A stretch of DNA of 64,000 nt from a phage, in the sequence record PZ452596.1. One strand, 5' to 3'. Every line of letters begins with the position of its first letter. Within the stretch, counting starts at the first letter, position 1. The notes under the pieces were generated by a model that was not told where the DNA came from, did no database searches, and saw only the letters and a program-made list of their open reading frames with translations. Below are positions 6,638-41,046 of the stretch, one piece after another. Made by a program: the position numbers and the translations under genes.

Positions 6638-6664
6638 AATAAAATGGGCCTTGCGGCCCACTCC

Positions 6665-10716: not shown

Positions 10717-11577
10717 TTATACCGCCATTTTTCCTTTCAAGACACCGTGGGACTGATAATCTTTGAGAACGAAATCTTTAGGCCTGAGTTTAAGAATGTA
10801 TTCCAATTGTTCTTTAGTAGAAAGATAGCGGAATTTATAAGGCAATCCGCCTATTACCAGTTCACAAAGCTCTTTAGGTTCACGACGTAAAATTTCTTTA
10901 CATTGTTCTACGTGATTCATATAGATATGAGTATTACCGCCAGAAAATATCAAATCTCCAGGAATAAGATTACACATCTTAGCTACAATATGAACTAACG
11001 CAGCATATGATGCAATATTAAATGGAAGGCCGAGAAAAACATCTACTGATCGTTGATACCACTGCAAATCTAAATAGCCATTACGCACATTAAACTGATA
11101 GAACACATGACAAGGCGGTAATGCCATATATTTAAGTTCAGCTGGATTCCACGCAGAAACAATTTGACGCCTATCATTTGGCAGTTTTTTAATACGATCA
11201 ACAACTTCTATAATTTGGTCTACACCGCCAAAATCACGCCACTGTTTTCCATAAATTGGACCAAGTTCACCGCTATGGTATCCTAAATCTTTTGCTTGAT
11301 TTTCGTAATTTTCATCCCAGACTGTTTTGCCTTGAATTAATGAATCATGTTGAATTAATCGTAAATCATTGACATTTGTGCTTCCTGATAAAAACCAAAG
11401 CAGCTCAGCAATGCAAGCTTTCCAGGCGAGCTTCTTAGTTGTTACCGCAGGAAAACCTTTAGTTAAATCCCAGCGCAATTTAGTACCGAACAAAGCAATT
11501 GTTCCTGTGCCTGTTCGGTCATCGGTTTCATAGCCATTTTCAAAAATGTCTTTAATTAAATCTTGGTATTGTTTCAT
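10717..11577 (-). CDS. td: thymidylate synthase
   Basis: 286 aa, ThyA active-site region ALPPCH; uninterrupted (no td intron or I-TevI). Confidence 0.95.
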   Translation of the reverse strand: MKQYQDLIKDIFENGYETDDRTGTGTIALFGTKLRWDLTKGFPAVTTKKLAWKACIAELLWFLSGSTNVNDLRLIQHDSLIQGKTVWDENYENQAKDLGYHSGELGPIYGKQWRDFGGVDQIIEVVDRIKKLPNDRRQIVSAWNPAELKYMALPPCHVFYQFNVRNGYLDLQWYQRSVDVFLGLPFNIASYAALVHIVAKMCNLIPGDLIFSGGNTHIYMNHVEQCKEILRREPKELCELVIGGLPYKFRYLSTKEQLEYILKLRPKDFVLKDYQSHGVLKGKMAV

Positions 11578-11622
11578 TTAGTACCTTATATAAATTATAA
11601 TACATTTTATGGAGCTAAATAA

Positions 11623-11982
11623 TCAATACGGTTTAGCATCAAATTTTCTTTCGATTTCAGGAGTGAAATATAATTCTTTACCGCGTTTAGAAAAGCGACC
11701 AATAATATGATAATTATTCTCATCAAACGTAATATTGCCAATATCCATGGCTTTCAACCAAATATCGATATTTCTATCCAGTTTTATATCAAAATTCCAA
11801 TACGGAGAACTATTACCGAAAATACTGCAAGCGGATTCAGTGAAACAACTACTATAAATCTTGTCTTTAGGAACTACTAATTGATAGACGCCTTTAATAA
11901 ACTGAGGACCCTGCCATTTTGGTTGTTTCGCGTCTTTTTCTAATAGAATAGGGTAATAATTAAAGTTCATATTTTCCGCCAC
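11623..11982 (-). CDS. hypothetical protein inserted between frd and td
   Basis: 119-aa ORF (MAENMNFNYYPILLEKD...) with its own spacing; no motif recognised. Confidence 0.5.
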   Translation of the reverse strand: MAENMNFNYYPILLEKDAKQPKWQGPQFIKGVYQLVVPKDKIYSSCFTESACSIFGNSSPYWNFDIKLDRNIDIWLKAMDIGNITFDENNYHIIGRFSKRGKELYFTPEIERKFDAKPY

Positions 11983-11990
11983 GCGTTATT

Positions 11991-12813
<823 letters not shown>

Positions 12814-12829
<16 letters not shown>

Positions 12830-13173
12830 TGAAAGGGGCCAGAAGCAAATCCGCTATCTTTAATCATTTTAACTAAAGTTACCATTCCTCTGTTAACTGC
12901 TTGTGAGATTTCATCAAAAACTTCATCACTATCACCATAAAGATCGCTAAAAAGTTCTAACACGTTCTTCTGAACTTTTAATTTACAGCCAACAAATTCG
13001 CCTACAGTAAATTCGTTTCCGCCAACTCCAGCGTAAAACGTAATTACACCAGTTAATGGTCTTTCACTAGAACATAGGTCGTGTGATAAATTAATATAAG
13101 CCGTCCCGGGTGCAGTTTTAAGTTGGCAACGAATACTTACTCGAGCAATTCCAGCTACACGAATGTCAGACAT
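12814..13173 (-). CDS. hypothetical protein (frd-32 cluster)
   Basis: 119-aa ORF. Confidence 0.5.
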
Positions 13174-13183
13174 ATTATTTTCC

Positions 13184-13426
13184 TCAAATAGACTTTTTCA
13201 CAATTTTCCAATCAGCTTTAAACTGCTCGACGTCAGAATGGTAAATCCAAAATCCTGCGCTTTCTCCATCCTCATAAAGAGGGCATCCATCACATTCATC
13301 TTCCCACCCCATATCGCGTAAAAGGTGTTCAGCTTTTTCAACAAGTTCAGAATCTTTACCGATGATATTAAAATACCATTTACCTCTAACTTCTGAATCT
13401 TTGATACTCTGACGTTGTAATCTCAT
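13184..13426 (-). CDS. hypothetical protein (frd-32 cluster)
   Basis: 80-aa ORF with CDGC motif. Confidence 0.5.
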   Translation of the reverse strand: MRLQRQSIKDSEVRGKWYFNIIGKDSELVEKAEHLLRDMGWEDECDGCPLYEDGESAGFWIYHSDVEQFKADWKIVKKSI

Positions 13427-13514
13427 TTTATTCTCCTTAGCAAGCTTTAATCAAAAGATATAAACAGACCAACATAACTGCTGCCATAATATAAGGTGCG
13501 AACATTTTCTTTTC

Positions 13515-13570
13515 TCCATTAGTTTTGATAGGGTAATAGTATCACACTACTACCCTGTTGTAAACAATTA
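13515..13570 (-). promoter_or_regulatory. early promoter candidate
   Basis: minus strand TGTTTAC followed by -10-like element; member of dispersed repeat family. Confidence 0.4.
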
Positions 13571-13861
13571 TTTTTGAATTTTATCGAGCCACTTACCAAG
13601 CTTAATCATTTCTTTAGTAGCCTTTTCCATACTTCTGAACTTAACCAATAGAGGATAGGTATCGACACCCATAACTAAACTGGTTACAAGACTGTGTTCA
13701 CCCACAAGCCATAATGAATACGTTTGAATATCGAGCCCGTAATTTCTGTCTTTATGGACCCGTACACCCATCACTTCAAATTTCTCACTAGCTTTTTCTA
13801 CCGCATCCAGGAAATCATCTTTAGTCATATTAGGCCTTAAAAGTTTTTCGCAAAAGTTCAA
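13568..13861 (-). CDS. hypothetical protein (frd-32 cluster)
   Basis: 97-aa ORF. Confidence 0.5.
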   Translation of the reverse strand: MNFCEKLLRPNMTKDDFLDAVEKASEKFEVMGVRVHKDRNYGLDIQTYSLWLVGEHSLVTSLVMGVDTYPLLVKFRSMEKATKEMIKLGKWLDKIQK

Positions 13862-14216
13862 TGATTTCGTCTACATTGTTTTCGTCAACAATGCAGTGAA
13901 TTTTTGTTACGCCAGAAACCTTGTCTTCGATTTCATCTTCTTCAGAAGTCGGTTCTTTATATTCGCGGAAACAATAAAACTCTTCTTCACGAAGTTCAAA
14001 ATAATCATCATCCATACCATCATCATTATAGATTTCACCATTAGCACAAATGATTTCGGTTACATAATCAAAGCCATCTAAACTTAATATTGATTTAACT
14101 TCAAACCAACCACCATTTTCTTGAATGATGCCGACCATACTAGCATTTGATGAACTAATATCAATGAAAGATTTAATATGACGTGGATTTAACTCGTATT
14201 TTTTGCCGATTTCCAT
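13830..14216 (-). CDS. hypothetical acidic protein (frd-32 cluster)
   Basis: start taken at second ATG (14216), which has SD GAGGAAAA; 128 aa. Confidence 0.5.
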   Translation of the reverse strand: MEIGKKYELNPRHIKSFIDISSSNASMVGIIQENGGWFEVKSILSLDGFDYVTEIICANGEIYNDDGMDDDYFELREEEFYCFREYKEPTSEEDEIEDKVSGVTKIHCIVDENNVDEIIELLRKTFKA

Positions 14217-14238
14217 TTTGATTTTCCTCATTTTAATA

Positions 14239-14272
14239 GGGGCTTGATAGCCCCTTGATAACCCCTTGATAA
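14239..14272. repeat. short tandem repeat with hairpin potential
   Basis: GGGG CTTGATAG CCCC TTGATAA CCCC TTGATAA: about 2.5 copies of an 11-nt unit, intergenic. Confidence 0.6.
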
Positions 14273-14503
14273 TTATTGTTCAATCAGTCCCATGTAAAAT
14301 TCTGCGTCTTCAGAATCCATGCCATCACAATATTCATTAGCCATAAAGCGGGTGAGGTCTTCAAGAGGACCTTCAATGACAATAGAAAAATTGCAATAAT
14401 TGGGATCATCGTGAATACTTGTGATACTAAGTTCAGGATAACGATTACGAATAATTTCTTCGATATATTCAAAATCAACGATGTCAATATCAACTTTAGC
14501 CAT
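14273..14503 (-). CDS. hypothetical acidic protein (frd-32 cluster)
   Basis: start at MAKVDIDIV with SD AAAGAGGAAAA; 76 aa. Confidence 0.5.
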
Positions 14504-14529
14504 ATTATTTTCCTCTTTAATCATCAGCA

Positions 14530-14590
14530 GTATTGCCGATAGTTGTATAGTACCATGGAAGAACAGGGATGTAAACAGTTTTGCGAAAAA
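14530..14590 (-). promoter_or_regulatory. T4-type early promoter (repeat family copy)
   Basis: minus strand GTTTACA -spacer- GGTACTATACAACTATC...; shares ~45 bp with copies at 31205, 34836, 62068. Confidence 0.5.
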
Positions 14591-14607
14591 ATTTTTGAAA
14601 TAAAAAA

Positions 14608-14626
14608 GGGGACCCTAGAGGTCCCC
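14608..14626 (-). terminator. rho-independent terminator after gene 32
   Basis: GGGGACC-CTAGA-GGTCCCC hairpin followed on minus strand by TTTTTTATTT. Confidence 0.8.
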
Positions 14627-14649
14627 CAATTAATTAGTAATATAATCTA

Positions 14650-15558
14650 TTAAAGGTCATTCAAAAGGTCATCCAGGTCCGTGTCATCAGCACTAGATGA
14701 ACTGCCAGAGCTTGAGCTCATAAAATCATCTTCAGTTTTTGTATTGAAGTCATCAACATTGAATGCATCCAAATCATCAGCAACTTTATCAGCTTTCTTA
14801 GCAGCAGTTGCAGCGGCACCGCCCATCACAGCAGTTCCCATAACTTGACCGAATTTAGTATTCAGTTCTTCAAACGATTTGAATTTATCTTTAGAAGTCA
14901 TTTCAGAAAGGTCAACCATTTGTTCGAACAGTTCTTTCTGGAAAGATTCATCATCAATGTTTGGAATCGCAGATTGATTCAGGAATTTAGATTCATCGTA
15001 GTTACTAAATCCAGAAACTTGTTTAACTTTCAGTACAAAGTTAGCACCTTCCCACGGACAAGTTACATCAACCGGAGTTTCACCCATTTCGACATCAACT
15101 GCAATCATCGCGTTGATTTTATCCCAGATTTTCTTACCGAAACGGTATTTAAATACTTTACCTTCGTTTTCTGGAGCAGCTGGGTCTTTTACTACAAGAA
15201 TGTTAGCCCAGTAAGAAGTTTTGCGTTTAATAAGACTGTACTCTTTATTGTCAGTGTTGTATAGATCATTTTTACTAATGTACTGACATACTGGACAAGA
15301 ATCGTAATCACCGTGGGTAGATGAGCAATTTTCGATATACCATTTACCGTTTTTCTTGAAACCGTGATTTACAAGAATTGCGAATGGTGCTTGTTCATCA
15401 TTTTTAGACGGAAGAAAACGAATTACTGCTTGACCGTTACCCGCATTATCGAGTTTCAGTTTCCACTCGCCTTTATCTTCAGAAGAAAAACCACCTTTAT
15501 TTCCAGCCAGTTTAGCCATTTGTGCAGCGAGTTCAGCAGTAGATTTACGTTTAAACAT
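14650..15558 (-). CDS. 32: single-stranded DNA-binding protein gp32
   Basis: 302 aa, acidic Ser/Asp-rich C-terminal tail; matches T4 gp32. Confidence 0.95.
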
Positions 15559-15640
15559 TTTTATTTCCTTTTTAATTTAATTAACAGTTGGTGCTATGAC
15601 GATGTATGACCTCATAGCTGGTCAGTGAGATAATTATAAT
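15559..15640 (-). promoter_or_regulatory. gene 32 leader / autoregulatory translational operator region
   Basis: AU-rich unstructured leader UUAAAUUAAAAAGGAAAUAAAA before AUG; operator role known from T4. Confidence 0.5.
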
Positions 15641-15641
15641 C

Positions 15642-15649
15642 TATTTATA
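15642..15649 (-). promoter_or_regulatory. late promoter core TATAAATA upstream of gene 32
   Basis: exact TATAAATA on minus strand. Confidence 0.4.
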
Positions 15650-15657
15650 ATAAGCAA

Positions 15658-16311
15658 TTAATACTTGCAGGATTTCACAGTTTCAATGAAAACACTTTTA
15701 GCTTTCTGTGAATCAATATTTAAAATTTTTCTATAAGCTTTTAACTTTATAGAAAAATTATTCCAAACTAAATTATCAGTCTGTTCATCATGTTTATCAA
15801 TTATATTTAAAAACGAATCAAGTAAGATAAACGTCTCAAACGAAATTATATTCGATTGAAGCAGTTTAAAAATATAACTTGACTGAACTTTTGGATTATA
15901 TTCAAAGATTTCTTTAAAAGCAGAAACTTCAACTTTCTTACTAAAATAATAAATGTTGCGAATATCTTCTTCAAACTTAAATTTAATTTGCTTTAAGCGT
16001 CCGATATATTCACGATAAAACACAAGTGCATCAGCGTCAGAGATGTCACCAATCCAAGCATCTTGGTTAGCAACAAGATTGCTTATAAAGATTAAAGCAA
16101 GTTCCTTTAATTTATATTTTTCTGATAACTTCTGGAAAAAATACTTATCCCTTCGCTTTTGATAAGCGGCATCAGACACCCGCATGCACCAATTATACTT
16201 AATTACATCATACTTTCCATTCATATGCTGTTTTATCATTAAGTATAATTTATAAACTGATTTACCATCAATGTATCTTTCACCACCAGCAGGCATGCGG
16301 AGTTTAATCAT
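15658..16311 (-). CDS. 59: helicase loader gp59
   Basis: 217 aa, same length and position as T4 gp59. Confidence 0.9.
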   Translation of the reverse strand: MIKLRMPAGGERYIDGKSVYKLYLMIKQHMNGKYDVIKYNWCMRVSDAAYQKRRDKYFFQKLSEKYKLKELALIFISNLVANQDAWIGDISDADALVFYREYIGRLKQIKFKFEEDIRNIYYFSKKVEVSAFKEIFEYNPKVQSSYIFKLLQSNIISFETFILLDSFLNIIDKHDEQTDNLVWNNFSIKLKAYRKILNIDSQKAKSVFIETVKSCKY

Positions 16312-23644: not shown

Positions 23645-26600
23645 ATGGCTACTTTAAAACAAATACAATTTAAAAGAAGCAAAACTGCAGGAGCACGTCC
23701 TGCCGCTTCAGTATTAGCCGAAGGTGAATTGGCTATAAACTTAAAAGACCGTGTACTTTTTACTAAAGATGACCAAGGAAATATCATTGATCTTGGTTTT
23801 GCTAAGGGCGGTAGTATTGACGGGAATGTTATTCATATAGGAAACTATAATCAAACTGGTGATTATACTTTAAATGGCGTCTTCACTCAGACTGGTAATT
23901 TTAATTTAACTGGTATTGCTCGAGTAACTCGCGATATTATTGCTGCTGGGCAGATTATGACTGAAGGCGGAGAACTTATTACAAAAAGTTCAGGTACAGC
24001 GCATGTTCGTTTTTTCGATGGCAATAGTCGCGAACGTGGAATCATTTATGCCCCGGCTAATGATGGTTTAACTACACAAGTACTTAATATCAGGGTTCAA
24101 GACTACGCCGCTGGTAGCGAAAGCACTTATGCATTTTCAGGCAGTGGCCTATTTACTTCACCTGAAGTATCAGCATGGAAATCTATTTCGTCTCCACAAA
24201 TTCTGACCGACAAAGTTATTACAAACGGGAAGAAGGCAGGAGATTATGATATCTATTCATTAGCAAATAACACCCCATTATCTGAAAGCACTACTGCTAT
24301 TAATCATCTTCGTGTCATGCGTAATGCCGTTGGTTCTGGTATTTTCCATGAAGTTAAAGATAATGATGGGATAACCTGGTATGCCGGTGACGGGTTGGAG
24401 GCTTATCTTTGGTCGTTTACGTGGTCCGGTGGGTTGAAAGCGGGTCATTCTATTTCTATAGGTACCCCAGGCGGTCCAAAAGGATATTCTGAATTAGGAA
24501 CGGCCTCAATTGTTCTTGGGGATAATGATACCGGATTTAAATGGCATCAGGACGGATATTATTTCAGCGTCAATAATGGAACAAAAACGTTTTTATTTAG
24601 TCCCAGAGAAACAACTAGCCTAAGAAAATTTGTAGCTGGATATTCTACTAACGGAACCGATTTAACTACTCCTCCAACTGAAAATTATGCTCTTGCTACT
24701 GTAGTAACATACCACGATAATAACGCGTTTGGAGATGGTCAGACTCTTTTAGGATATTATCAAGGCGGTAACTATCATCATTATTTCCGCGGCAAGGGTA
24801 CTACAAACATTAATACTCATGGCGGTTTGTTAGTTACTCCAGGTAATATTGATGTTATTGGCGGTTCTGTTAATATTGATGGTATAAATAATTCTTCTAC
24901 CCTGCTATTTAGAGGCAACACAACTGGTAGTAGTTCAGTTGATAATATGACAATTTCCGTTTGGGGCAATACGTTTACTAATCCTAGTGTAGGTAATCGT
25001 AAAAACGTCATGGAAATTTCTGATGCAACTAGTTGGATGAGCTATATTCAAAGACTTACAACAGGTGAAGTAGAAATGAACGTTAACGGTTCATTTGAAT
25101 CATCTGGTGTTACTGCTGGAAATAGAGGAGTTCACACAACAGGCGAAATTTCATCTGGAGCAGTGAATGCGCTTCGCATTTGGAACGCAGATTATGGAGC
25201 TATTTTTAGACGTTCAGAAGGTAGTCTTCATATTATTCCAACTGCTTACGGTGAAGGTAAACACGGCGATATCGGTCCACTTCGCCCGTTTAGTATGGCT
25301 TTAGATACTGGTAAAGTTACTATTCCAGATTTACAATCAAGTTACAATACGTTCGCTGCTAACGGTTATATTAAATTTGTTGGTCATGGAGCGGGTGCCG
25401 GCGGTTATGACATTCAATATGTTCAAGCGGCTCCTATTTTCCAGGAAATCGATGATGATGCTGTAAGCAAATATTATCCTATTGTTAAACAGAAGTTTTT
25501 AAACGGTAAATCCGTTTGGTCTTTAGGTACTGAAATTAATTCAGGTACATTTGTTTTACATCATTTAAAAGAAGACGGAACTCAAGGACATACGTCTCGT
25601 TTTAATCAAGACGGTACTGTTAACTTCCCAGATAACGTTCAGGTCGGCGGCGGTGAAGCTACTATTGCTCGCAATGGTAATATCTTCTCCGATATTTGGA
25701 AACCGTTTACTTCTGCAGGTGATACTACAAATATTCGCGATGCTATTGCGACTCGTGTTTCGAAAGAAGGCGACACGATGACCGGTAAGTTGATTATTAG
25801 AAGAGATTCTGACGCTATTAACTTAGCTGCGCCTTCGACAACTGATGCAAGTTACCTTCTTTCTACAGGCGCTGGTGAAAATCTATGGTATATTGGTAAA
25901 GGCGGCGCTGATAATACTGTATCATTTTACAACTATAAAACCAATGGGGCTGTGCAAATTAACTCTATTGGTGAAATCGCGCTGATTCCACAAGGTGCTG
26001 CAACATTTAACTTCAACCGTGATCGTCTCTATATAAATGGGTCTCAATGGACTGCACATCAAGCTGGTGACTGGGTTAACCAATGGCGTCAAGAAGCTCC
26101 TATATTTGTGGATTTTGGTAGTGTCGGCAATGACTGCTATTATCCTATTATTAAAGGAAAATCTGTTATTACGAATGAAGGATACGTATCTGGTGTTGAT
26201 TTCGGTATGCGCCGTATCACTAACCAATGGGCTCAGGCTATTATCCGTGTTGGTAACCAGGAAAATGCTAGCGATCCGCAAGCTATCTTCGAATTCCACC
26301 ATAATGGAAACATGTACGTTCCTGACATGGTTAAAGCTGGAGTAAGATTATCAGCTGGTGGAGGTGACCCTGTATGGACAGGCGCATGTGTTGTTATTGG
26401 TGATAATGACACTGGGTTAGTTCATGGCGGTGACGGTCGTATTAACATGGTTGCAAATGGAGTGCATATTGCTTCATGGTCGTCCGCTTACCATCTCCAT
26501 GAAGGTCTTTGGGATACCACCGGTGCTTTGTGGACTGAACACGGAAGAGCTATTATTTCTTTTGGTCATTTAGTTCAAGAAAGTGATGCCTATTCCACAT

Positions 26601-26959
26601 TTGTCCGCGATGTTTATGTCCGTTCTGATATTCGTGTTAAAAAAGACCTTGTTAAATTTGAAAATGCTTCTGAGAAGCTTTCTAAAATTAACGGTTACAC
26701 TTATATGCAGAAGCGAGGCCTAGATGAAGAAGGCAATCAGAAATGGGAACCTAACGCCGGTTTGATAGCTCAAGAAGTTCAAGCTATTTTGCCTGAATTA
26801 GTTGAAGGTGACCCTGATGGCGAAGCTTTACTTCGTTTGAACTATAACGGTGTAATTGGTTTAAATACAGCTGCAATCAATGAGCATACTGCAGAAATTG
26901 CGGAACTTAAATCAGAAATTGAAGAACTTAAAGCATTAGTTAAATCATTGTTAAAATAA
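23645..26959 (+). CDS. 37: long tail fibre distal subunit gp37 with C-terminal intramolecular chaperone domain
   Basis: 1104 aa; C-terminal ~120 aa ([10 protein letters not shown]...[15 protein letters not shown]...coiled coil) resembles auto-cleaving chaperone domains of phage fibres. Confidence 0.9.
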
Positions 26960-26990
26960 TAAGAGGGGCTTCGGCCCCTTGGAGGTTTAT

Positions 26991-31284: not shown

Positions 31285-31304
31285 GGGAGAGCCGAGGCTC
31301 TCCC
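31285..31304 (-). terminator. rho-independent terminator between motA promoter region and gene 52 operon end
   Basis: GGGAGAGCC..GGCTCTCCC hairpin followed on minus strand by TTTTTTATTT. Confidence 0.7.
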
Positions 31305-35457: not shown

Positions 35458-35525
35458 TTAAACTTTCCTTTATGTCGGAATCACTGATATTCATATAATA
35501 AATCATAATTTCTCTTAAAACAAAA

Positions 35526-35537
35526 GGGCCGAAGCCC
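35526..35537 (-). other. UUCG-tetraloop hairpin immediately 3' of stop codon
   Basis: minus strand GGGC-UUCG-GCCC directly after TAA of the 64-aa ORF; identical copy at 35752. Confidence 0.5.
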
Positions 35538-35540
35538 TTA

Positions 35541-35735
35541 TTATTTGAATTGTGCAATTCTTTTCTCTAGACATTCAGCATAAGATTTCATTGAAATGAA
35601 CTGTGAAAGCAGCAGTTCTTGCTCAACTGCACTAACCGTTAGAAACTTTGCGCTTTCTAAAAATTTACTAAGCGCATTAATTTTGAGCATTAATTGATCG
35701 TATTCTTCTTTTACTCGTGCTTGATAACCTAACAT
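35541..35735 (-). CDS. hypothetical small protein between rIIB and denB
   Basis: 64-aa ORF flanked by two identical UUCG-loop hairpins. Confidence 0.45.
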   Translation of the reverse strand: MLGYQARVKEEYDQLMLKINALSKFLESAKFLTVSAVEQELLLSQFISMKSYAECLEKRIAQFK

Positions 35736-35751
35736 AATTTTCCTTAGTTAA

Positions 35752-35763
35752 GGGCCGAAGCCC
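35752..35763 (-). other. UUCG-tetraloop hairpin immediately 3' of rIIB stop codon
   Basis: identical 19-nt element TAAGGGCUUCGGCCCUU as at 35526. Confidence 0.5.
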
Positions 35764-36702
35764 TTATTTAAATTGTTCAGTAACGTCTTCAACTACTTCG
35801 TATTGGCAGGTACGCATTTTAGCGTCGTTGTAATCAATCGGAATTGATACTACATCGCGAGGATGTACTTTAACTTTTACAACTCGGCTGGTTGAACTGC
35901 CAAAGTGACGAATATAAGATTTAGAACACACATGCAGACCGCGAGAACAAGTTTGTGTATCATCGTCATTCACACGAGTACGTGGCATTTTAACTACTTT
36001 ACCCGGACTGTTATCAAATGTGTTTGAGTGACAGTCAAAGTAATTGCTGCGAACTACTTTCCAAGCATAGAAGTAACCATCTTCTGTAATTTCAATATCG
36101 TTTGCTACCAAGAAATCAAAGAGTCGAGATACCGCTTTTTGGCTTGGGTTTTCCAGCAGATTTTCCAAGAACGGAAAATAAAATTCAAAGTTTTCGCCTT
36201 TTTCCATCGAGTCAAGAATACGATCAACTAAACCGGACCGCAATTCGATATTTTGATAGAACAAGCTTCCACCTTCAATTCGAACATCGCCGGAAATATA
36301 TTTTTCAACAGCGCGACGAACATTAATTTTTTGCACAGCTTCTTCCAGCTTATCCGCTACAAGCAGATTAAGAATTTCCTGGAAGTTTGAATGAGTATTA
36401 GGAGTTGCGTTATAAGTTACGCCATCAACAGTAATTGAAATGAATTTTTTAGATGCATTCCAAATAATGTCAGATTTAGCAACTGGAGCAATAACTGCAT
36501 CGCTATTAACTTTAACTGTAATATCACCGCTAATAGTAACTTTAGGGTGTTTAGCTTCTTCAGCATTTTTCAAAACACGACGGATTGTGTCAACCGATAC
36601 ACCTTGCCAATCAGCCAATTCCTGTTGGGTGTAATTACCACTTGAATACAGTTTAACAATTTCAGCTTGTTCATTTTTGGTCAGGCATTTAATATTGTAC
36701 AT
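35764..36702 (-). CDS. rIIB: rIIB protein
   Basis: 312 aa, matches T4 rIIB. Confidence 0.95.
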   Translation of the reverse strand: MYNIKCLTKNEQAEIVKLYSSGNYTQQELADWQGVSVDTIRRVLKNAEEAKHPKVTISGDITVKVNSDAVIAPVAKSDIIWNASKKFISITVDGVTYNATPNTHSNFQEILNLLVADKLEEAVQKINVRRAVEKYISGDVRIEGGSLFYQNIELRSGLVDRILDSMEKGENFEFYFPFLENLLENPSQKAVSRLFDFLVANDIEITEDGYFYAWKVVRSNYFDCHSNTFDNSPGKVVKMPRTRVNDDDTQTCSRGLHVCSKSYIRHFGSSTSRVVKVKVHPRDVVSIPIDYNDAKMRTCQYEVVEDVTEQFK

Positions 36703-36713
36703 AATTTTCCTTA

Positions 36714-40980: not shown

Positions 40981-41046
40981 TTATCCTCGTTTGGTTTCGG
41001 GAATATTATACTCCGGTAATCATAAAGCTAAAGGCCCGAAGGCCTT

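Follow-up and report, generated by a model that had tools for sequence, protein, structure and literature searches.

Hairpin and tandem 11-nt repeat between the early genes frd.3 and frd.2 of the T4-like phage RB27

Background

Does a short tandem repeat between two phage genes mark the binding site of a regulator, or does it reflect the way in which the local sequence mutates? This question was raised by positions 14239-14272 of a 64,000-nt stretch of phage DNA, which we call the window. An earlier note had described this segment as a tandem 11-nt repeat with hairpin potential in a 5' UTR, and had suggested that it could be a binding site for a translational regulator or an RNA structural element. 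The sequence given there and its distance of 23-56 nt to the ATG of the downstream gene were found to be exact.

The window matched Enterobacteria phage RB27 (KM607000.1), a Tequatrovirus and relative of T4, at 100% identity. It runs across the end of the linear RB27 GenBank record at window positions 36713/36714 (record 128467-165179, then 1-27287), from which it follows that the copy has been circularised or permuted. The genes on either side of the repeat correspond to frd.3 and frd.2 of the T4 annotation. In a literature search, we found no paper naming frd.2 together with frd.3 and no T4 Term-seq data, and the frd.3-frd.2 junction is undiscussed in the two T4 reviews consulted.

Results and discussion

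Gene context of the element

All genes around the element are oriented on the - strand. The following features, given in window coordinates and ordered along the transcript, were recognised:

15558-14650, - strand: gene 32, further upstream of frd.3
14627-14607, - strand: canonical gene 32 terminator, detected by a terminator scan
14547..14575, - strand: T4-type early promoter (TTTACA-17-TACTAT with TG), located immediately past the gene 32 terminator, driving the frd.3-frd.2 operon
14273..14503, - strand: frd.3 coding sequence, 76 aa (Pfam Phage_FRD3, E = 6e-38; T4 annotation)
14262..14272, - strand: 11-nt unit UUAUCAAGGGG, copy 1 (exact match and Tandem Repeats Finder), predicted single-stranded
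14251..14261, - strand: 11-nt unit UUAUCAAGGGG, copy 2, whose AGGGG makes up most of the hairpin 5' arm
14239..14250, - strand: variant third unit CUAUCAAGCCCC, comprising CU (the end of the 5' arm), the AUCA loop and the AGCCCC 3' arm
14238..14255, - strand: intercistronic RNA hairpin AGGGGCU-AUCA-AGCCCCU, 7 bp with a 4-nt loop (fold prediction and conservation)
14226..14229, - strand: Shine-Dalgarno (SD) sequence GAGG of frd.2, 8 nt past the 7-bp hairpin and 9 nt past CCCC
13830..14216, - strand: frd.2 coding sequence, 128 aa (Pfam FRD2, E = 1e-37; T4 annotation)

From the frd.3 stop codon to the frd.2 start, the - strand reads UAA / UUAUCAAGGGG / UUAUCAAGGGG / CUAUCAAGCCCC / UAUUAAAAU / GAGG / AAAAUCAAA / AUG, with no gap between the stop codon (14275-14273) and the repeat. 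In the T4 annotation, frd.2 starts at the ATG at 14216; another in-frame ATG, at 14231 upstream of it, is shut off by a stop codon in T2-type relatives. Early promoter and terminator labels are present at the homologous sites in the records of phages SA20RB and Lutter.

Between the frd.3 stop and the ribosome-binding site of frd.2, no convincing promoter was detected. The element therefore lies in an intercistronic spacer, and the 5' UTR location that had been assumed for it is not demonstrated. In T4, both frd.3 and frd.2 are classed as early RNA and early protein (PMC9697503 supplements). As frd.2 has no promoter of its own and is nevertheless early in T4, read-through from frd.3 has to occur, and any termination between the two genes would be leaky.

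As for neighbouring genes, RB27 contains an extra ORF between frd.2 and frd.1 (13568-13861, - strand, up to 97 aa). This ORF has no Pfam match and is missing in T4; its AR1 homologue, AR1_247, is annotated as best matching a protein of phage JS98. With a TTG start, its upper end overlaps the frd.2 stop by ~30 nt. The segG homing-endonuclease gene between genes 32 and 59 (15558-15658) is missing in RB27 and AR1, unlike in T4. The thymidylate synthase gene td (10717-11577) is one uninterrupted ORF of 286 aa in RB27, the group I intron being absent; AR1 is alike in this respect and T4 is not.

A hairpin conserved at frd.3-frd.2 junctions

The hairpin potential was borne out by RNA fold prediction: AGGGGCU-AUCA-AGCCCCU is both the minimum-free-energy and the centroid structure in RB27, and the same 7-bp hairpin is obtained for T4 and KMB40. 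Its 16-nt core alone folds at -10.3 kcal/mol, and the stability of the hairpin, which includes five G-C pairs, is about -10 to -13 kcal/mol. For the deletion form represented by phage RPN226 (see below), the hairpin is gone and the predicted energy is -1.0 kcal/mol. The SD of frd.2 was unpaired in every variant that was folded.

The hairpin was found in most of the ~500 Tequatrovirus records, and within the RB27 genome the GGGGCU...AGCCCC hairpin is unique. Its occurrence is confined to junctions where frd.3 precedes frd.2; at loci where frd.2 directly follows a promoter (L011 and L015), it is absent. RPN226, P8 and BMB16 have lost it by deletion, only a degraded form is left in sutha, and a more distant locus (L014), with frd.3 still next to frd.2, lacks it. 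Its lack in several phages indicates that the hairpin is dispensable and that any function must be minor.

To the phage records, exact-flank pattern scans added 3 loci from IMG/VR and 9 from metagenomes, including one chance match (L024). Across the ~30 junctions thus compared, the GGGGCU/AGCCCC arms are near-invariant, and the loop takes at least eight forms (AUCA, AUUA, AUAA, AUUAC, AUUAU, AUUACA, GUAAU and CUAUCA). The flanking coding sequence diverges to ~60-80% identity. There are only two stem substitutions, a G-U pair in L008 and a U-G pair in L026; both pair in sense RNA only, and would break pairing in antisense RNA or in a DNA cruciform. For the pair count, loops were swapped for a fixed GAAA placeholder, as MAFFT misaligned the 3' arm of the raw junctions owing to their differing loop lengths. 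None of the seven stem pairs was changed on both sides and two were changed on one side (wobble-compatible; p ~0.25 by chance), and with the loops normalised in this manner by hand, pairing was retained in 96.6% of cells, with shuffles giving an equal value. The IMG/VR and metagenome loci contributed loop and stem variants, and no compensatory changes were seen among them. A search of positions 13000-16000 on both strands gave no Rfam match at E <= 1.

Intercistronic hairpins elsewhere in the window

Very stable hairpins between cistrons are a long-known habit of T4, and Tuerk et al. 1988 (PNAS 85:1364) reportedly described stable C(UUCG)G hairpins in intercistronic positions of T4 mRNAs. In the window, GC-rich perfect hairpins were represented by 35 nested matches versus 4.3 in shuffles (~8-fold), corresponding to ~22 distinct structures. 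The arrangement of stop codon, hairpin, SD and ATG recurs at window positions 6645, 26964, 33093 and 35750. Like the intercistronic hairpins of T4, the one between frd.3 and frd.2 consists of a short GC-rich stem and a 4-nt loop, located between a stop codon and the next SD on a polycistronic mRNA; unlike the C(UUCG)G type, its AUCA loop is closed by a U-A pair and varies among relatives. It is one of the abundant stable intercistronic hairpins of the T4 type.

Several individual hairpins of the window can be recorded here. The one at 26964 has a UUCG loop and lies between the homologues of genes 37 and 38. Just before it, at 26892-26955, two tandem repeats are adjacent to each other (period 21 with 2.0 copies, and period 12 with 2.4 copies); they form the extreme 3' end of the homologue of the long tail-fibre gene 37 (23645-26959). 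Further GC-rich hairpins occur at 41031, 58107, 31285 and 62204, among other positions; of the ~22 structures as a whole, the majority lie between genes, and a UUCG loop is found in several. Those at 31285, 62204 and 14608 are terminator-like, with a U-tract, and others lie directly before an SD. Two identical 16-nt hairpins with a UUCG tetraloop, AAGGGCUUCGGCCCUU, are located on the - strand at 35524-35539 and 35750-35765. They flank an ORF of 64 aa (35541-35735): its stop codon is followed after 1 nt by one of them, and 14 nt separate the other from its start.

The 11-nt repeat

The + strand of 14239-14272 reads GGGGCTTGATAGCCCCTTGATAACCCCTTGATAA. On the - strand, two exact copies of TTATCAAGGGG (14272-14262 and 14261-14251) precede CTATCAAGCCCC (14250-14239). 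Tandem Repeats Finder described the site as 2.7 copies of period 11 with 94% matches. However, the third unit has CCCC where the others have GGGG. It consists of the loop and the 3' arm of the hairpin, and there are therefore only two true copies. The description as a tandem 11-nt repeat thus stands for two exact copies, which are beyond chance, and has to be given up for the third unit.

Chance alone would yield 0.03-0.04 occurrences of the 11-mer per strand of the RB27 genome (165 kb). The site is the sole exact tandem of two 11-nt units in the whole genome, and exceeds chance. The earlier note had proposed a search for further copies: beyond the two at the site, the complete 165,179-bp genome contains no exact copy, and a single match with one mismatch elsewhere is at chance level.

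Copy number of the 11-nt unit in related phages

Among ~499 phage records matching the junction, two copies of UUAUCAAGGGG are present in RB27 and AR1 only, aligned with no 11-nt gap; each of these two phages is additionally represented by a RefSeq copy in the record set. One UUAUCAAGGGG occurs in T4, T2, T6, RB32 and ~470 other records. In T4, Lutter, SA20RB and G4498, for example, a single UUAUCAAGGGG is followed by the hairpin, so that the RB27 repeat appears as an 11-nt insertion in comparison with T4. RB27 and AR1 share 98.7% identity across 6.1 kb at the site, and one event in their common ancestor suffices to account for both. No copy of UUAUCAAGGGG remains in RPN226, P8 and BMB16, where the hairpin has been lost as well: RPN226 equals T4 minus exactly one UUAUCAAGGGG, and P8 and BMB16 have the same deletion. 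In KMB40 alone, the neighbouring 3' unit UAUCAAGCCCC is doubled. Conservation in related phages, on which the earlier note had made its reading depend, is thus divided: the repeat is limited to RB27 and AR1, and the hairpin extends over most Tequatrovirus records. The suggested RNA structural element is supported as regards the hairpin (stable, with conserved arms, a free loop and G-U-compatible stem changes).

At least three independent gains or losses of exactly one 11-nt period have occurred in related phages. All changes of +/-11 nt were found on a T4-type background, in which TATCAAG stands twice at 11-nt spacing. The T2-type variants (loop AUUAC) lack this direct repeat while keeping the inverted repeat, and the sampled ones showed no +/-11 event. 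The recurrence of period-11 length changes in separate lineages marks the site, judging from the aligned sequences, as a hot spot of slippage or unequal exchange.

To examine the junctions, window positions 14239-14275 were compared with the T4T, KMB40, P8 and RPN226 loci (L001, L017, L029 and L043, respectively). The duplication (RB27, AR1) exactly mirrors the deletion (RPN226, P8, BMB16), with two versus zero copies of UUAUCAAGGGG. In both cases, the junction is found one base beyond the 7-nt TATCAAG direct repeat. At this base, simple slippage predicts C for the duplication and U for the deletion, whereas U and C, respectively, were observed. With junctions offset by 1 nt from the 7-nt homology, the events call for an imperfect heteroduplex of 8 nt or for a follow-up substitution. 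Length changes at short direct repeats, of the kind attributed to Streisinger-type slippage, were classically studied in T4 rII. The polymorphism described here resembles them in the change by a whole period (11 nt) at a place where 7-nt direct repeats sit in phase, and differs from them in that its junctions fall one base beyond the perfect 7-nt homology.

Alternative explanations

Could the hairpin and the repeat be without function altogether, i.e. a GC-rich quasi-palindromic remnant that is kept by descent and mutates by slippage? The phages in which the hairpin was lost or degraded (RPN226, P8, BMB16 and sutha) are viable and L014 lacks it, compensatory covariation was not found, and the sampled phages with the hairpin all belong to one genus, so that conservation may reflect short divergence time. 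On the other hand, the arms are near-invariant as against eight variants, including length changes, in a loop of only 4-6 nt, and this while the flanking coding sequence falls to ~60-80% identity. Both stem substitutions keep the pairing in sense RNA, and GC-rich intercistronic hairpins exceed shuffles ~8-fold in an AT-rich genome. Taken together, we consider absence of any function unlikely.

A second alternative is that the frd.3 transcript stops at the hairpin, which would be a rho-independent terminator with the repeat as part of its upstream context. A GC-rich stem of 6-7 bp, with about -10 to -13 kcal/mol, placed just past a stop codon resembles an intrinsic terminator, and the homologous hairpin of SA20RB is annotated as such by WebGeSTer, the sole label of this kind. 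What is missing for an intrinsic terminator is a U-tract: the stem is followed by UAUUAAAAU in T4-type phages, with 3 U in the first 8 nt, and by GUUAAAAU in T2-type phages. The scan that detected the gene 32 terminator made no call here on either strand, and the annotations of G4498 and Lutter (ARNOLD-based and other) mark the gene 32 terminator only. Moreover, the ribosome-binding site of frd.2 begins 8 nt past the hairpin, and this gene, promoterless here, is expressed as early RNA and protein together with frd.3 in T4 (PMC9697503 supplements). A terminator is thus an improbable reading of the hairpin.

The regulator site suggested in the earlier note would be a multi-site operator, formed by the repeated UUAUCAAGGGG or by TTGATA at a DNA spacing of one helical turn, through which a phage or host regulator that binds RNA or DNA controls frd.2. 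Direct repeats of 7+4 nt with an 11-nt period are typical of tandem protein sites, and a position just upstream of the ribosome-binding site would fit a translational operator. T4 indeed encodes translational repressors, namely RegA, gp32 and gp43 (PMC3014915), and their operators (RegA sites, the gene 43 hairpin and the gene 32 pseudoknot; PMC3014915) are likewise RNA elements upstream of or at the ribosome-binding sites of early genes. Those operators are, however, conserved and overlap or abut the SD or AUG, where repressors of the RegA type act; the repeat discussed here is not conserved, is clear of both SD and AUG, and exists at a single locus of the genome. Its copy number varies from 0 through 1 to 2 among near-identical phages, two copies being found in just 2 phages within ~499 records, and the 11-mer is missing from the rest of the RB27 genome. 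The T2-type phages have retained the inverted repeat and not the direct one, and the region has no Rfam match. Given these observations, the tandem repeat is very unlikely to be a regulator site.

One may also imagine that the copy number of 0, 1 or 2 units acts as a contingency switch (hairpin off, on, or on with a spacer) that tunes the Frd.3:Frd.2 ratio or message stability across hosts, a scenario to which we attach very little probability.

Finally, the element might be a true 5' leader after all, if a weak promoter in the end of frd.3 started RNA at ~14262, so that the transcript in T4 began with a protective hairpin. Hairpins at the 5' terminus are known stabilisers of mRNA, the sequence TTTACA-18-AATTAT (14298-14269, - strand) matches 9 of 12 promoter positions, and its predicted start coincides with the GGGG of the 5' arm in single-copy phages; yet 9/12 is near chance (18 sites in 3 kb versus 11.3 +/- 3.6 expected), the spacer is 18 nt long, the -35 element lies inside conserved coding sequence (Phe-Tyr), and neither SA20RB nor Lutter, the two records annotating early promoters here, marks any such site, all of which renders this scenario scarcely credible.

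Other candidates were rejected directly. A MotA-box middle promoter was dismissed as a TGCTT-type box is absent in gene orientation. Antisense transcription from a late promoter, ended by the hairpin, was dismissed as there is no TATAAATA on the + strand of 11000-16000. A new start codon using the SD-like AAGGGG of the extra copy was dismissed as AUG, GUG and UUG are all absent within range downstream. On the + strand of 14244-14273, a sigma-70-like sequence, TTGATA-18-GATAAT (10/12), shared the best score in a 3-kb scan. It was created by the 11-nt duplication (the T4 spacing would be 7), is specific to RB27/AR1, and points antisense into frd.3; it is probably meaningless.

A model for the frd.3-frd.2 junction

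The explanation that we favour, and hold to be on balance probable, combines a conserved intercistronic hairpin, with a presumed role at the RNA level, and a neutral or near-neutral duplication by slippage. The genes frd.3 and frd.2 lie in an early operon transcribed from the promoter at ~14575-14547, with the hairpin situated between the frd.3 stop and the frd.2 SD. In T4-type phages, the hairpin region doubles as a period-11 direct repeat, (U/C)UAUCAAG-GGGG / CUAUCAAG-CCCC, which predisposes it to slippage during replication or to unequal exchange. According to this model, one of these processes added one UUAUCAAGGGG unit in the ancestor that RB27 and AR1 share. The extra unit would stay single-stranded upstream of the hairpin and leave the hairpin, its spacing to the SD and the open ribosome-binding site unaltered.

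The predicted structures are consistent with this. In the RB27 fold, the extra UUAUCAAGGGG is unpaired, and both the hairpin and the open SD are the same as in T4. The hairpin begins 17 nt after the frd.3 stop in RB27 versus 6 nt in T4, with the same distance between hairpin and SD. The duplication thus appears to be a neutral or nearly neutral length polymorphism. In designed operons, addition of 3-40 nt of single-stranded spacer RNA changed mRNA less than 2-fold (bioRxiv 10.1101/2020.07.22.216051), which suggests that the extra 11 nt would have a small effect at most.

As to the hairpin itself, a role in mRNA decay or processing would be the most likely one. It would act either as a barrier that stops 3'->5' exonucleases, shielding the frd.3 part of the message upstream once endonucleases have cut the AU-rich spacer, or as a processing landmark through which the two cistrons meet different fates on the mRNA. 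In addition, it may weakly and leakily attenuate read-through into frd.2. The -71 site of T4 gene 32 is a processing site of RNase E. Sites of this enzyme with a downstream stem-loop are comparable to the frd.3-frd.2 junction, where AAUUA, fitting the RNase E motif RAUUW (bioRxiv 10.1101/2020.07.22.216051), spans the frd.3 stop within an AU-rich single strand and the hairpin lies just downstream. They differ in that AAUUA at frd.3 is a sequence match only, to a motif that is short and common in AT-rich sequence. The stretch in which cleavage by RNase E would be expected is AAUUAUCAA.

Conclusions

With the repeat, a candidate regulatory site drops out, and the sole conserved feature of the junction is an ordinary intercistronic hairpin. 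At the same time, RPN226/P8/BMB16, T4, RB27/AR1 and KMB40 constitute a near-isogenic natural allelic series. This series could be used to measure the effects of a hairpin on segmental mRNA stability or translational coupling in T4 early operons.
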